A DNA stretch of 61,197 nucleotides from Gammaproteobacteria bacterium (GTDB lineage Bacteria; Pseudomonadota; Gammaproteobacteria; Steroidobacterales; UBA11654), in the NCBI GenBank assembly GCA_029941465.1, contig JAPYQN010000007.1, positions 972-62,168 on the forward strand, written 5' to 3'. This document shows positions 23,053 to 27,944 of this stretch, piece by piece. A program made the position numbers and the translations under genes. Numbering within the stretch: the stretch's first letter is position 1; each line of letters starts with the position of its first letter. The notes below the pieces were generated by a model, which did not search any database, had not been told where the DNA came from, and was given only the letters and a program-made list of their open reading frames with translations.

Positions 23053-23721
23053 ATGAACAAAGCAATCGTTCTTTTGTCAGGTGGCATGGATTCTTCCACA
23101 GCACTATCAATAGCTATAAAAGAAGGTTTTGAATGCTATGCTTTGACATTGGATTATGGTCAGAGACACCGAGATGAAATTAATAGTGCAAAAAATATAG
23201 TAAAGGATTTTAAAATTACTGAGCACAAACTTGTTTCAATAGATCTAACTGTTTTTGGAGGCTCAGCACTTACTGATAAAAATATAAAAGTCCCAGAGCA
23301 AGCATCTTCTGGAATTCCCATAACCTACGTACCTGCTAGAAATACAATATTTTTCTCATTAGCCCTTGCTTGGGCTGAAGTTATAGAGGCCGATGCAATT
23401 TTTTCTGGCGTTAATGCCATTGATTATTCTGGTTATCCTGATTGTAGACCAGAATATATATCTGCTATACAGGAGTTATTTAATCTTGCGACCAAGATTA
23501 CTTCTGAAGGGAAAAGTATAGAAGTCTGCGCCCCTTTAATTAATATGGATAAAAAAGAAATCATTAAGATAGGGATAGAAAATGGAGTTGATTTCTCTAA
23601 GACAGTTTCATGCTATCAATTGGATCAACATGGCAAGTCTTGTGGTTTATGCGATTCTTGTAGAATTAGATCTAAGGCATTCGAAGAATTAAATCTAGAA
23701 GATAATATTGAATATGTTTAA
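23053..23721 (+). CDS. queC: 7-cyano-7-deazaguanine synthase
   Basis: SGGMDS, TYVPARN, YPDCRP and C-terminal CGLCDSC. Confidence 0.96.
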   Translation: MNKAIVLLSGGMDSSTALSIAIKEGFECYALTLDYGQRHRDEINSAKNIVKDFKITEHKLVSIDLTVFGGSALTDKNIKVPEQASSGIPITYVPARNTIFFSLALAWAEVIEADAIFSGVNAIDYSGYPDCRPEYISAIQELFNLATKITSEGKSIEVCAPLINMDKKEIIKIGIENGVDFSKTVSCYQLDQHGKSCGLCDSCRIRSKAFEELNLEDNIEYV

Positions 23722-23779
23722 AATTCTGTTTTATTTTTGAGACCTAGGTTATTATTCACCAGATTTTTTATTTTACTTT

Positions 23780-23855
23780 GGGCCGTTAGCTCAGTTGGTA
23801 GAGCAGCTGGCTTTTAACCAGTTGGTCGAAGGTTCAAATCCTTCACGGCCCACCA
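23780..23855 (+). tRNA. tRNA-Lys (anticodon TTT)
   Basis: GGGCCGT/ACGGCCC acceptor stem, anticodon arm CTGG-CTTTTAA-CCAG, TTCAAAT T-loop and encoded CCA. 76 nt. Confidence 0.97.
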
Positions 23856-23862
23856 CTTATTA

Positions 23863-23970
23863 ATGAAAAAAAACATAAAAAAATATTGGATTATTTCATC
23901 ACTTATCTCATTATTTTTCTTTGCAATATTAGTTTTTATTTTCATTTTATCTTTGCCTAACAGTAACTAG
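23863..23970 (+). CDS. Putative 35-aa single-pass membrane protein
   Basis: Manual translation MKKNIKKYWIISSLISLFFFAILVFIFILSLPNSN*. It fills the gap between tRNA-Lys and the next ATG (3 nt after its stop). Confidence 0.5.
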   Translation: MKKNIKKYWIISSLISLFFFAILVFIFILSLPNSN

Positions 23971-23973
23971 ATT

Positions 23974-24639
23974 ATGAGCAATCAAACCATCCAATTAAAT
24001 GACGATCTCTATGACTATCTTTTGTCAGTTTCTTTAAAAGAAGACGAGATATTAAAGAGTCTAAGAATGACAACGTCCTCCATGCCAGGCTCCAGAATGC
24101 AGATTGCCCCTGATCAAGGTCAATTCATGGCTATGCTGATTAAAATTATGGGGGCAGAGAAATTAATTGAAATTGGAACATACACTGGTTACAGCACTCT
24201 GGTTTGTGCTATGGCAATGAAAAAAGGACAAATTATAGCTCTTGATCGTGATCCTATATCTACAGCTGTTGCTAGGGATTTTTGGAAACAAGCTGGGGTT
24301 GATGATTTAATTGACTGTCGTCTTGGAGACGCTTTGGAATCACTAAATAAGATTATTGATGATGAAGATGGCTTATCCAGTTTTGATTTTATTTTCATCG
24401 ATGCAGACAAGAGAAATTATAAAAATTATTATGAAATAGGATTGAAGTTATTAAAACAGAATGGGATTATAATTTTTGATAATGTTTTATGGAGCGGAGC
24501 AGTGGCTGACCTCAATGATCAAGATAAAAATACCCTTGCTTTAAGGGAGCTTAATGAGACATTGTATAAAGATAATAGAATTGAACTCAGTATGATTCCT
24601 GTTGGTGATGGCTTAACGATTGTAAGGAAAAAAGAATAA
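23974..24639 (+). CDS. SAM-dependent O-methyltransferase (caffeoyl-CoA OMT family)
   Basis: MQIAPDQG, EIGTYTGYS, FIDADK and DNVLWSG. Confidence 0.92.
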   Translation: MSNQTIQLNDDLYDYLLSVSLKEDEILKSLRMTTSSMPGSRMQIAPDQGQFMAMLIKIMGAEKLIEIGTYTGYSTLVCAMAMKKGQIIALDRDPISTAVARDFWKQAGVDDLIDCRLGDALESLNKIIDDEDGLSSFDFIFIDADKRNYKNYYEIGLKLLKQNGIIIFDNVLWSGAVADLNDQDKNTLALRELNETLYKDNRIELSMIPVGDGLTIVRKKE

Positions 24640-25010
24640 TGAAAGATTCACTAAATGTCTTTGGCGAACCTCTAAATGAATGCAGCAGTTCTCCCAAAAC
24701 TGGTTTTTTTAGAAATGGTTGTTGCGATACCTCAGATGAGGATCTAGGCAGTCACACGGTATGTACTATTCTAACTGAAGAATTTCTTGAGTTTAGTGCA
24801 TCAGTTGGAAATGATTTGTCTACGCCAATGCCTGCACTAGGTTTTTCAGGTTTAAACCCAGGGGACCAATGGTGTTTATGTGCTCCAAGATGGCAACAAG
24901 CTTTTGAAGCAAGCTCAGCTCCAAAAGTAGTTTTATCTTCTACACACCAAGGTGCCTTAGATTACATTGACTTTGAAAATCTAAAAAAGTTTGCGGTAGA
25001 TATTAATTAG
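24639..25010 (+). CDS. DUF2237 family protein
   Basis: NVFGEPL..CS..PKTGFFRNGCC, HTVC, GNDLSTP and GDQWCLCA. Confidence 0.88.
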   Translation: MKDSLNVFGEPLNECSSSPKTGFFRNGCCDTSDEDLGSHTVCTILTEEFLEFSASVGNDLSTPMPALGFSGLNPGDQWCLCAPRWQQAFEASSAPKVVLSSTHQGALDYIDFENLKKFAVDIN

Positions 25011-25034
25011 GTTTTTTTTATTTTTTTACATTGA

Positions 25035-25985
25035 ATGAATATTAAAAAAACAATCTTATTTTCCCTGGTAATCATTATTCAAGGTTGCTCCCTAACTCAA
25101 GAAAAAGACTTTGGGAATCAAACACAAAGATTAGAACAACTATCAGTTGAAAACAGGCTAATAGCTGAAGATCTTATTAAATTTATAGAAGATTCAGATA
25201 ACAAATATTTTAGTTGGGCAGGCTGTATAAATCTTAACTTAACTGCCATTGATAACAATTGTCTTGGTAAAGACAATGGCAATACTGCTGATGAGAGCTT
25301 CCAATCTGTAACAAAATATTCAGATTTTGATATAAGGGTTGCTAGAGGACCAATAGTCGAGAAAATTGGTCGGATGATTTCTGAAGGTAAAATGACTTCA
25401 CCTGGAAGAGGGGAAGAGAGGAATTTATTATGGGGCCGTTTTTATTCCATTGATGTTTATCCAAAAACCCCATTAGTGGGAATGCTTCATGCAACTTTAG
25501 TCCTTCAAATTTTTGAAGATGGCTCTATAGGAACAGGTGGCTGGCTTGATGTTATGCCTGGTACAAGAGTCAAGAGTGACATGAATTATTTAAAAAAAGT
25601 GACAGATGAATATTTCGAAGAAAATAATGCTGATCCAAGTTTATACAGAAGGCTAGTTTGTAAAGGGACAGAAGAAACAATCGCAGAATTTAGAAGAAAG
25701 CCGTCATGTTCTGGAGTTAGCTTTTATGGTCCTCCAGTGTTTAGAGAGAGCGGTGAAAAAAGTTATAGATTCATCAAAGGCATGTACTCAGAATTTGTTG
25801 ATGCATATTTTGAAACTATTCAGAAAAGAATGAATGATCCATTTACAGAAGAAGACCTACTTGCTCAGGAAAAGATGAGAAAGAGCTGGTTAATAGATCA
25901 GTTATTCTCAGATCCTTTCGCCAGTAAAATTGTTCCTTTTGAAGTATGGGCAACTGCTAATGTTGCACCAACGGTGAAATTTTAG
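25035..25985 (+). CDS. Lipoprotein with divergent coproporphyrinogen III oxidase (HemF)-like domain
   Basis: Lipobox IQGC (Cys18). Collinear HemF-like blocks: RGPIVEKIG, SIDVYPKTPLVGMLHA, GGWLDVMP and QEKMRKSWLIDQLFSD. Confidence 0.65.
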   Translation: MNIKKTILFSLVIIIQGCSLTQEKDFGNQTQRLEQLSVENRLIAEDLIKFIEDSDNKYFSWAGCINLNLTAIDNNCLGKDNGNTADESFQSVTKYSDFDIRVARGPIVEKIGRMISEGKMTSPGRGEERNLLWGRFYSIDVYPKTPLVGMLHATLVLQIFEDGSIGTGGWLDVMPGTRVKSDMNYLKKVTDEYFEENNADPSLYRRLVCKGTEETIAEFRRKPSCSGVSFYGPPVFRESGEKSYRFIKGMYSEFVDAYFETIQKRMNDPFTEEDLLAQEKMRKSWLIDQLFSDPFASKIVPFEVWATANVAPTVKF

Positions 25986-25994
25986 GAGATATAA

Positions 25995-26585
25995 ATGAAT
26001 GTAGCAATAAAACAAAACGATGATCCAAATCGTTTCTTTTGGTACTTCATTTATTTAATGATTTCATTCGTTAGTGCTTTGCCTCTTTTTGGACTTAGAC
26101 TTAATGATTTTGGTATTAACTATCTGTTTTTACTATTTATTCATGAGTTTGCTAGCTTTCTTTTTTTTGGCCATACTTTTTTCTCAAATATATGGGCGAT
26201 GCAAATTCGCTTTAACCAAGCAAAAGAAGTTGGTGTTTGGGCAAGGTTTTTTTTAAGAAAGCTAGCCTTATCAATTACGATGACAACTTCGATCATAATC
26301 CCGATAACAGGACTAATGCTCATTGAATCATGGGGCGGATTACATAATGCTCCTTGGGCTTGGAATGCTTATTTTGCATTCTGGTTAATGGCCGCTATAA
26401 GCATTACCCCTGATGTAATTCGTTATGGCAGAAATAGGAATGCTGGTGATCCAAAACACGGAATGGTCAGTGGGGCTATTCGAGGTAATATTGGTACAGT
26501 TTTAACCATTTATATCATTTGTTGCATGATCCTAAAAATTGCTTGGATAACACCATTTGCAAAGTGGTCAATATTTTTAGCTTAA
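25995..26585 (+). CDS. Integral membrane protein, HemJ/DUF2269-like
   Basis: About 5 TM, His in 'YLFLLFIHEFA', 'ITGLMLI' and C-terminal 'IICCMILK'. RBS AGGAG, 9-nt gap from the upstream gene. Confidence 0.5.
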   Translation: MNVAIKQNDDPNRFFWYFIYLMISFVSALPLFGLRLNDFGINYLFLLFIHEFASFLFFGHTFFSNIWAMQIRFNQAKEVGVWARFFLRKLALSITMTTSIIIPITGLMLIESWGGLHNAPWAWNAYFAFWLMAAISITPDVIRYGRNRNAGDPKHGMVSGAIRGNIGTVLTIYIICCMILKIAWITPFAKWSIFLA

Positions 26586-26589
26586 TAGA

Positions 26590-27585
26590 TTAGTTGGTAT
26601 CTTTCTGATACTTAAATCTGTCATCAACCCTTGTTTCTTTTTTCATAGCTTCAGAATTAGCTTCTGCTTGAGCAAGACCATCCTGTATATTCTTTTGCTG
26701 GCTTACTGGTTTATATAGAATTCCTTTGTCTGGATTTATAAATTGTTTAAGTGGGCTAATCTCATGATGTCCATCCATGGCACAAAAACGAGTAATAGAA
26801 TACCTATCATGAGATGTAGGTGGAACCCTGTGAGGCGTTGCTTTAACTTTACCATTAGTCATTATTTCCAACATATCCCCTAACATTACGATGATCTCAT
26901 AACGAGTTGAATCAACCATATGCCATTTTCCTGAACGATGTTTCAATTGCGAACCTTCTGCAGATTGGGTCAGGAGTGTAAAAACCTCATAATCTGTATG
27001 GGCACTGATACCAAAGAGGTTATCTTCTGGAATGCCCTCAACAGCAGGATAGTATATTAACCTCATAGTAGAAGGAGATTTTTCTGTCATTTTCTTGGAA
27101 ATAAAACCCTTATTTATTACTAAAGCCTCCTCAATTTTATTTGCCAATTGGTTCTCTACTTTTGAGAATTCTAAATAGTAATTATAAATTGATTTTTTGA
27201 AATCAGGCATTTTAGGTGGCCATAAGTTTGGACCAAAATTTTCAAATTCATGGTCTATTTCTTCTATCTCATAACACATATCAAATGCGGAACAAGTGGC
27301 TTTTGTATTCGCAGAATAAGCTGGTTCTTCTCCGCAAGGTGACCATCCTCTTCCAGAATGAGAGTAGCGATAATGTGTTGCTTGTTTTATTGGGTCAGAA
27401 TCTTTCATATCATGAAAGGTTTTAGATTGACCATAAGCTTCATCTATGACTTTCTCTGAAACCCCATGATCGATAAGAAGAAAATAGCAATCTTCAATTA
27501 ATGCGTCTGTAAGTCTTTTTAATTCAGTAGACTGATCCTGTTGATGGGAATCATCTAGGAGTCTTTTTAGGCTTATTTTTTTCAC
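26590..27585 (-). CDS. 2OG-Fe(II) dioxygenase (isopenicillin N synthase-like)
   Basis: HTD...H facial triad, RYS 2OG-binding motif, GPNLWP and MRLIYYP. Confidence 0.9.
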   Translation of the reverse strand: MKKISLKRLLDDSHQQDQSTELKRLTDALIEDCYFLLIDHGVSEKVIDEAYGQSKTFHDMKDSDPIKQATHYRYSHSGRGWSPCGEEPAYSANTKATCSAFDMCYEIEEIDHEFENFGPNLWPPKMPDFKKSIYNYYLEFSKVENQLANKIEEALVINKGFISKKMTEKSPSTMRLIYYPAVEGIPEDNLFGISAHTDYEVFTLLTQSAEGSQLKHRSGKWHMVDSTRYEIIVMLGDMLEIMTNGKVKATPHRVPPTSHDRYSITRFCAMDGHHEISPLKQFINPDKGILYKPVSQQKNIQDGLAQAEANSEAMKKETRVDDRFKYQKDTN

Positions 27586-27665
27586 AAAACAAATACATTC
27601 CTTACATCAATTAGTTTAATTTTATATGATCTTTTATAAGATAGAAGGCTAATATTTAAAACATA

Positions 27666-27944
27666 ATGAAAAGTCGAATAGAAATAATTGAACTTACACT
27701 GCGAGATAATCTAAACATTCACAAGTTGATTATAGAGGATCAAGGCCATTTACATAAAGGTCACAAAGCAGCAAAAGAAGGAAAAATGCATTTAAAAATA
27801 TCAATAGTGAGTAATGATTTTAAAGATATATCTCCAATCCAACGCCATCAAAAAGTTTATTCTGTATTAGGCGAGTTTCTAAAAGATGAATTACATGCGC
27901 TGTCGCTAGAGTTGAAAACAATAGAAGAATTAAAGATTATCTAA
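27666..27944 (+). CDS. bolA: BolA family protein
   Basis: HLHKGH, HLKISIVS..F, QRHQKVY and LHALS. Confidence 0.9.
   Translation: MKSRIEIIELTLRDNLNIHKLIIEDQGHLHKGHKAAKEGKMHLKISIVSNDFKDISPIQRHQKVYSVLGEFLKDELHALSLELKTIEELKII

Follow-up and report, generated by a model that had tools for sequence, protein, structure and literature searches.

What would a bacterium apparently incapable of haem synthesis do with an exported relative of coproporphyrinogen oxidase (CPO, HemF), and does the membrane protein encoded directly behind it take part? This question is raised by two co-oriented open reading frames (ORFs), here called A and B, at 25035–26585 of a stretch of 61,197 nucleotides (the window) from the metagenome-assembled genome (MAG) of a Gammaproteobacteria bacterium of the order Steroidobacterales (assembly GCA_029941465.1, contig JAPYQN010000007.1, positions 972 to 62,168, forward strand). 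An original prediction made from the letters of the DNA had described the pair as an envelope-localised tetrapyrrole module, composed of an exported HemF-fold lipoprotein and a HemJ/DUF2269-like membrane partner. We report that A is a member of a distinct exported clade in the HemF superfamily and not an ordinary HemF, and we assign a probability of about one half to the reading that A is a periplasmic protein handling a tetrapyrrole, with B as an independent neighbour. The HemF known so far acts in biosynthesis, either in the cytoplasm or in mitochondria; an exported clade with the catalytic residues, a rebuilt pocket and hosts devoid of haem synthesis points to an undescribed extracytoplasmic tetrapyrrole reaction. 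Seawater is rich in haem, porphyrins and products of chlorophyll breakdown, which are poorly tracked there, and no description of an exported HemF-like clade came up in the literature search.

ORF A belongs to an exported clade of the HemF superfamily

ORF A (25035–25985, forward strand) encodes 316 amino acids and falls below the cut-offs of both profile collections used, with 25.5 bits (E 6.3e-6; cut-off 31.8) against Pfam PF01218 and 32.7 bits (cut-off 297) against the NCBIfam HemF equivalog NF003727, while some of its relatives lie marginally above the Pfam cut-off (31.8–42.8 bits; canonical copies ~290–458). The HemF likeness that had been proposed for the first gene is beyond chance: a phmmer search of the PDB matched A to Leishmania CPO with an E value of 1.3e-7, and a profile of 25 A-family members reached the PDB CPOs with 5e-14. 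In a Foldseek search of the PDB with the AlphaFold2 (AF2) model of A (predicted local distance difference test, pLDDT, 86.2), the 16 matches listed before the first protein of another kind were all CPOs, with E values of 1e-9 to 2e-5, template modelling (TM) scores of 0.46–0.69 and an identity of 17–20% to the Leishmania entries; the bilin reductases PcyA and RCCR, likewise tetrapyrrole binders, rank after them. By eye, the C-terminal PPxV[KR]F of A resembles the LPPxVRW of HemF, and A is ~25 residues shorter at this end.

A maximum-likelihood (ML) tree of 47 hand-picked rows, with fragments excluded, places 25 A-family rows together with the protein P0252 beyond a branch of 100/100 support and length 3.03, and the 13 canonical HemF rows on a 100/100 branch of their own. 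The family comprises 180 of 1.84 billion representative proteins at E<=0.001 (43 at E<=1e-30), with numerous fragments among them, and its members are only about 30% identical to each other. No fused longer form of A was found among 1898 candidates, the search itself being weak evidence. Several proteins from metagenomes have related architectures: P0252 combines a signal peptide, a TPR-like domain and an A-like domain in one fusion; P0341 consists of a signal peptide, a ~170-aa domain of unknown kind and a HemF-like domain; and P0312, P0313 and P0335 are short HemF-like forms of 250–277 aa that lack a signal peptide and end in PPxV[KR][FY].

The N-terminus of A, MNIKKTILFSLVIIIQGC, is a hydrophobic signal with a lipobox-like IQGC, and the signal peptide spans residues 1–18 (25035–25088, forward strand) with Cys18 at 25086–25088. 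A crude hydropathy measure (no trained predictor) was applied to the 114 homologues of >=290 aa out of 120 listed, and a hydrophobic 12-mer was present within the first 45 residues of 112 of them, a lipobox-like motif also in 31. Of the two exceptions, P0074 has a truncated start call and P0102 an Ala-rich signal under the threshold, and one paralogue of A (L023) carries a twin-arginine-like NRRELLHL. The same test was negative for each of four canonical HemF proteins from related genomes (0/4). On both counts, the signal-like N-terminus and the CPO fold match, the proposal of an exported HemF-fold protein held.

For the mapping of active-site residues, printed alignments of the A family to Leishmania, yeast and human CPO were compared with the residue roles of human CPOX as given in a preprint (bioRxiv 10.64898/2026.07.02.735896), in which Arg262 serves substrate recognition. 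Three residues are invariant in 25 A-family members, namely H152, D182 and D293, equivalent to His258, Asp282 and Asp400 (human numbering), and S138 (Ser244; in the main subgroup) and R282 (Arg389) are retained as well. The substrate-recognition positions are changed, with Asn260 replaced by T154, Arg262 by Val or Leu and Arg401 by P294; moreover, no Arg of the A family aligned with Arg332 in the alignments to CPOs, and the active-site loop 400–413 is shortened. The family also has invariant basic residues of its own, R104 and K110, and near-invariant cysteines at C209 and C225.

Haem pathway genes in the host and its relatives

The genome that carries the window (1.39 Mb, 91.8% complete) was searched for haem genes with Pfam and NCBIfam profiles, and A is its only PF01218 match. 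These profiles found no canonical hemF/hemN or hemJ elsewhere in the genome, and no match to ALAD (hemB), URO-D (hemE) or HemN_C, while the haem-copper oxidase subunit I, COX1, is present at 466 bits. Within the same family, ALAD occurs in one of 20 genomes, an 82%-complete MAG that carries it on a short contig, and none of the seven good genomes has it. Single exceptions in this family are a canonical HemJ at G127:C4:11319-11756 (156 bits) and, in another genome, an ALAD on a short contig at G148:C117:2033-2974 (450 bits), either of which could represent retention or bin contamination. Across the order, canonical HemF (~290–458 bits) is found in most families and in neither of the two that bear A, which are the host's own family and its sister family f16.

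In f16, ALAD is present in 26 of 31 genomes, where it could serve sirohaem or cobalamin, and ChdC in two of 31. Five f16 genomes of 98–100% completeness, four of them closed single contigs, contain no real URO-D or ferrochelatase, no HemN over the cut-off (0/5), where the matches were proteins of HemW length only, no canonical HemF and no HemJ over the cut-off. A itself is missing from five of 13 f16 genomes.

Both the host and f16 thus seem to be haem auxotrophs, and the absence of the remaining pathway (HemE before the HemF step; HemJ/G/Y and HemH after it) agrees with the idea that A was repurposed for a role outside biosynthesis; with these steps missing, A cannot be a biosynthetic HemF in this host. 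Water-column Woeseiaceae, the label of the nearest relatives, have small genomes of 1.7 ± 0.7 Mb, and haem transport genes are reported in the family (PMC12175321). The passages searched of this paper and of the SAR86 isolate paper do not mention haem auxotrophy; the gene tables of PMC12175321 or the taxon table of a preprint on haem auxotrophy (10.1101/2021.01.11.426183) may already name the lineage. An apparent haem auxotrophy in a streamlined planktonic lineage and in a sister family with larger and partly closed genomes is relevant to cultivation, as hemin may be a required growth factor, and haem may be a traded public good in the ocean.

ORF B and its association with ORF A

ORF B (25995–26585, forward strand) encodes a 196-aa inner-membrane protein with five predicted helices and follows A after a spacer of 9 nt (25986–25994). 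Its AGGAG ribosome-binding site (25984–25988, forward strand) overlaps the TAG stop of A and is followed after 6 nt by the ATG of B; coordinates and layout were exactly as predicted. RNA-library contigs cover both genes and span the A/B junction in two of four runs; being assembled library contigs, they carry no information on strand, level or single transcripts, may include DNA carry-over and are uninformative where parts are uncovered. At the window locus, A and B are probably co-transcribed, which the bridging contigs fit and do not prove.

The second gene had been read as HemJ/DUF2269-like, and the two halves of this assignment fared differently. Against PF10027 (DUF2269), B scores 23.7 bits, below the cut-off of 28, while 15 of 25 B-family members match it at E<=0.1 (best E 1.2e-5), several close homologues bear a precomputed PF10027 label, and a profile–profile comparison of the B family with 11 true DUF2269 proteins by hhalign gave 83.9% (E 7.8e-6, 106 columns). 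For HemJ (PF03653), there was no profile match with the B of the window and a match with three of 25 family members (best E 0.0093), and hhalign gave 0.6%, from a small profile of only four HemJ sequences with which a distant kinship is still compatible; DUF2269 against HemJ gave 13%. A language-model atlas listed DUF2269 first, then HemJ (0.81–0.82) and then CopD clusters (range 0.79–0.89), all of them leads only. DUF2269 kinship thus stands in weak form, and HemJ kinship is weak and at clan level only, with B as a weakly supported distant relative of DUF2269, of the DUF2269/HemJ/CopD kind.

The AF2 model of B (pLDDT 84.3) shows five long helices. Neither structural search was informative on its fold: the best PDB match in Foldseek had an E value of 0.55, and VIA-align wide returned generic helical bundles with a best Z of 11.6, less than the ~13 that is common for such bundles. 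The B family is ~60% identical across gammaproteobacterial MAGs; H50, E51 and H60, all located in helix 2, are invariant, as is PDxIRY. In the hhalign comparison, the invariant H10 and G19 of DUF2269 correspond to H50 and G59 of B, and by eye a similar M-x-x-K stands towards the end of the final helix in both; differences from DUF2269 are an additional N-terminal helix (five predicted helices and 196 aa versus four and about 155 aa) and the invariant E51, H60 and PDxIRY. HemJ/PgdH2 is likewise small, helical and membrane-embedded and also has a conserved His close to the start of one of its helices, whereas B gives no profile–profile signal with it and would have no haem pathway to serve. By our own reading of the positive-inside rule, H50 and E51 would be placed close to the periplasmic end of helix 2, with H60 in mid-membrane, and this His/Glu/His set could hold haem b or a metal. 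No paper on the function of DUF2269 was found beyond passing mentions, and to our knowledge roles within the DUF2269/HemJ/CopD group have been established only for HemJ and CopD, to which B is a well-conserved and experimentally approachable addition.

The distribution of both genes was followed in an order-wide sample of 151 genomes from 22 families. A is present in 17 of them, namely in the window's genome, 8/13 others of its family and 8/13 of f16, and was not found in any other of the 22 families; B is present in 26, including 12/13 of the own family, 11/13 of f16 and one genome each of f12 (strong) and f15 (weak). Gene order in the own family is methyltransferase-DUF2237-[A]-B-2OG-BolA, with B directly 3' of A at all nine A loci, while in four congeners (L032–L035) B follows DUF2237 directly, ~45 nt apart, in the same synteny and with no trace of A. 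In two further loci (L056:4466-5932 and L060:1838-3328) an extra protein of ~490 aa with a signal peptide is encoded between DUF2237 and A, so that the position upstream of B holds zero, one or two genes for exported proteins and is regarded as a variable slot.

Outside this family the association is lost. In f16, none of 11 A loci has B within 1.5-kb flanks and none of 15 B loci has A, nor does the f12 locus L044; the closed genome G050 has A only, and G079, G100, G130, G137 and G011 have B only. When one genome per species was considered, B lay <=6 kb from A at 10 of 73 loci, all of them in the low-GC (0.34–0.38) own clade. No constant neighbour of A was found outside this clade in a survey that listed 70 of the 73 loci and in which a greedy ORF caller took antisense frames in high-GC loci ('cluster 1'); elsewhere A is flanked by varied genes, some of them clade-specific, comprising an MFS transporter, a Rieske oxygenase, a SnoaL-like protein and methyltransferases (Pfam) as well as hydrolase-like and TauD-like proteins (by eye). 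Co-folding of A (residues 24–316) with B gave a score of 0.00 in a run without controls and counts neither for nor against contact. The claim of a two-gene system is therefore not supported: conservation of the pair holds in the own clade (9/9 A loci) and not across lineages, and the two genes in part do not co-occur elsewhere, while the structural match of A to HemF stands. As A–B adjacency is limited to one lineage, it does not establish a joint system, and B is best read as an independent neighbour and the older resident of the locus.

A functional module in which A acts on a tetrapyrrole and B, as a His-ligated haem b protein, oxidises the product or feeds the quinone pool would be suggested by the shared strand, the 9-nt spacing with its AGGAG site, the strict adjacency in the own family and at the low-GC loci (10/10), the contigs across the junction, the invariant histidines and glutamate of B, with H50 at the position of the invariant DUF2269 His, and the DUF2269, HemJ and CopD clusters of the atlas. 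At the family level, both genes also occur in the same two families, save for the f12 and f15 matches of B. The original prediction had drawn on the consecutive steps catalysed by HemF and HemJ, and HemJ, a b-type haem protein, is indeed reported to be functionally coupled with coproporphyrinogen oxidase in Synechocystis (PMC13564367). However, at 63 of the 73 A loci B is not encoded within 6 kb, each gene occurs without the other in the congeners and genomes named above, the neighbours of A in other lineages differ with none constant, and the hhalign signal between B and HemJ is negligible. In addition, by the E. coli rule a Ser at position +2 after the lipobox Cys directs a lipoprotein to the outer membrane, and A has Ser there, which would place it away from B. 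We hence consider a true A–B partnership, even within the own clade, where adjacency is its only positive support, to be unlikely.

A few observations concern other loci. In two genomes of one f16 genus, the gene after A (L013:2189-2815 and L014:852-1565) encodes a membrane protein that weakly resembles a ferric reductase (20 bits, cut-off 28), and a Fur-like regulator (by eye; L013:5-412) lies close by. The f16 B homologues of L037, L041, L042 and L051 adjoin a gene for a 338-aa protein as well as a small regulator-like ORF, and at two other B loci FAD-oxidase-like and SDR-like genes adjoin (all by eye).

Proposed role of A, alternatives and the wider locus

According to the reading we prefer, A would be located in the periplasm, lipid-anchored in this lineage; it keeps the HemF fold and chemistry residues, with the coproporphyrinogen III-recognising arginines and loop replaced. 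It would bind a scavenged propionate-bearing tetrapyrrole there and probably modify it oxidatively, through decarboxylation of a propionate to a vinyl group or a related step, and would not act in haem biosynthesis; scavenging is assumed because the host seems unable to make haem. B would be an inner-membrane protein of the DUF2269 type, separate from A and conserved more widely, and A would occupy the variable slot directly upstream. HemF chemistry needs O2 and no other cofactor (PMC10548856), which would suit the periplasm. A precedent for a re-aimed fold is HemF2 of the tolyporphin cluster, which acts on protoporphyrinogen IX by decarboxylating its propionates on rings C and D (same source). 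Compared by its description, HemF2 resembles A in being derived from HemF, in its altered pocket and, putatively for A, in its new tetrapyrrole substrate, but is part of a cytoplasmic biosynthetic cluster with other hem genes, whereas A is exported and has no hem genes around it. Leishmania offers a second parallel as a haem auxotroph that keeps HemF, HemG and ferrochelatase for host precursors (PMC4114063), with the difference that its HemF is canonical and A is exported and remodelled.

Several points weigh against this reading. Handling of a tetrapyrrole by A is suggested by fold and residue conservation only, and A is dispensable within the genus, as 4/13 own-family B loci lack it. The missing haem genes were scored by Pfam and NCBIfam searches of MAGs, and non-homologous haem enzymes are possible. 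Furthermore, A occurs outside apparent auxotrophs: two of five A-bearing genomes of other lineages have a real URO-D (325 and 412 bits), and the notion that the A family is confined to haem auxotrophs was rejected for this reason. The close spacing, shared strand and bridging contigs fit a real A–B partnership in the own clade equally well. Finally, codon 142 of the window's A is TAT (25458–25460, forward strand) and encodes Tyr in place of the His of HPxxP, which is conserved in HemF and present in 119 of 120 homologues, while base 25458 reads C, giving a His codon, in contigs of all four RNA-library runs. This Tyr142 may be a private variant or a consensus error of the MAG, so that the window copy may be impaired or the base wrong.

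Among the explanations in which A has another function, A may not be an enzyme at all and could instead be a periplasmic haem- or tetrapyrrole-binding lipoprotein, acting as carrier, store or receptor partner with His as a ligand and aiding haem uptake. A host that has a haem-copper oxidase and no haem synthesis would have use for such a protein, the fold shared by CPO, PcyA and RCCR binds tetrapyrroles, the substrate-recognition arginines of HemF are lost, and haem transport genes are reported in planktonic Woeseiaceae (PMC12175321). Nevertheless, the His/Asp/Asp set of HemF chemistry is invariant despite ~30% identity, which exceeds what binding would call for; four congeners that must still obtain haem have no A, and A also occurs in genomes with URO-D. 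These points make a pure binding role rather improbable.

We give still less weight to the possibility that A acts on another propionate-bearing aromatic or pyrrole compound, with its position next to B and the host's haem status as coincidences. The varied neighbours of A in other lineages, its un-HemF-like pocket and its presence in genomes both with and without URO-D would be compatible with such a substrate, yet the solved relatives of the fold all bind tetrapyrroles and the pyrrole-acting residues of HemF are retained in A.

A more elaborate scheme, for which we see very little chance, is a periplasm-facing salvage route for late haem precursors or porphyrins in haem-auxotrophic marine Gammaproteobacteria, in which A would decarboxylate scavenged precursors outside the cytoplasm and B would oxidise them at the membrane, maybe together with an exported ferrochelatase-like protein where one is present; if true, it would be a bacterial counterpart of the CPOX/PPOX arrangement of the mitochondrial intermembrane space. 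The candidate for the third member is a 491-aa ORF on contig C20 of the window's genome (L002:949-2424, +), whose N-terminus forms a hydrophobic anchor or signal and whose ferrochelatase match is marginal (28.5 bits, cut-off 27). It gave no PDB sequence match, is 52–58% identical across other families and occurs in 2/13 other genomes of the own family, 7/13 of f16, 13/13 of f22 and 2/13 of f19, and thus looks like an uncharacterised chelatase-like family. Its rarity in the own family and its presence in all 13 sampled genomes of f22, which lacks A and B, weakened the idea of an exported late-haem trio.

That A is an ordinary HemF and B a HemJ in a plain or cryptic haem pathway can practically be dismissed: A is the sole PF01218 match of a genome whose family, like the other A-bearing one, has no canonical HemF, but ALAD, URO-D, HemN and HemJ are missing from that genome and ALAD from all seven good family genomes, A has a signal peptide, scores 32.7 instead of 297 bits against the equivalog and has lost Arg262, and it is absent from four congeners and 5/13 sister-family genomes.

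In the wider locus, a promoter and terminator scan of 23700–27800 returned 14 promoter-like and two terminator-like sites, numbers not above those of shuffled sequences (means 16.3 and 2.1). The constant upstream neighbour of the A/B slot is the DUF2237 gene (24639–25010, forward strand; PF09996 at 176.6 bits), which together with an O-methyltransferase gene (Pfam) lies 5' of A. On the 3' side of B, a 2OG-Fe(II) oxygenase gene in convergent orientation is followed by BolA and by a methyltransferase with a SnoaL-like domain (Pfam).

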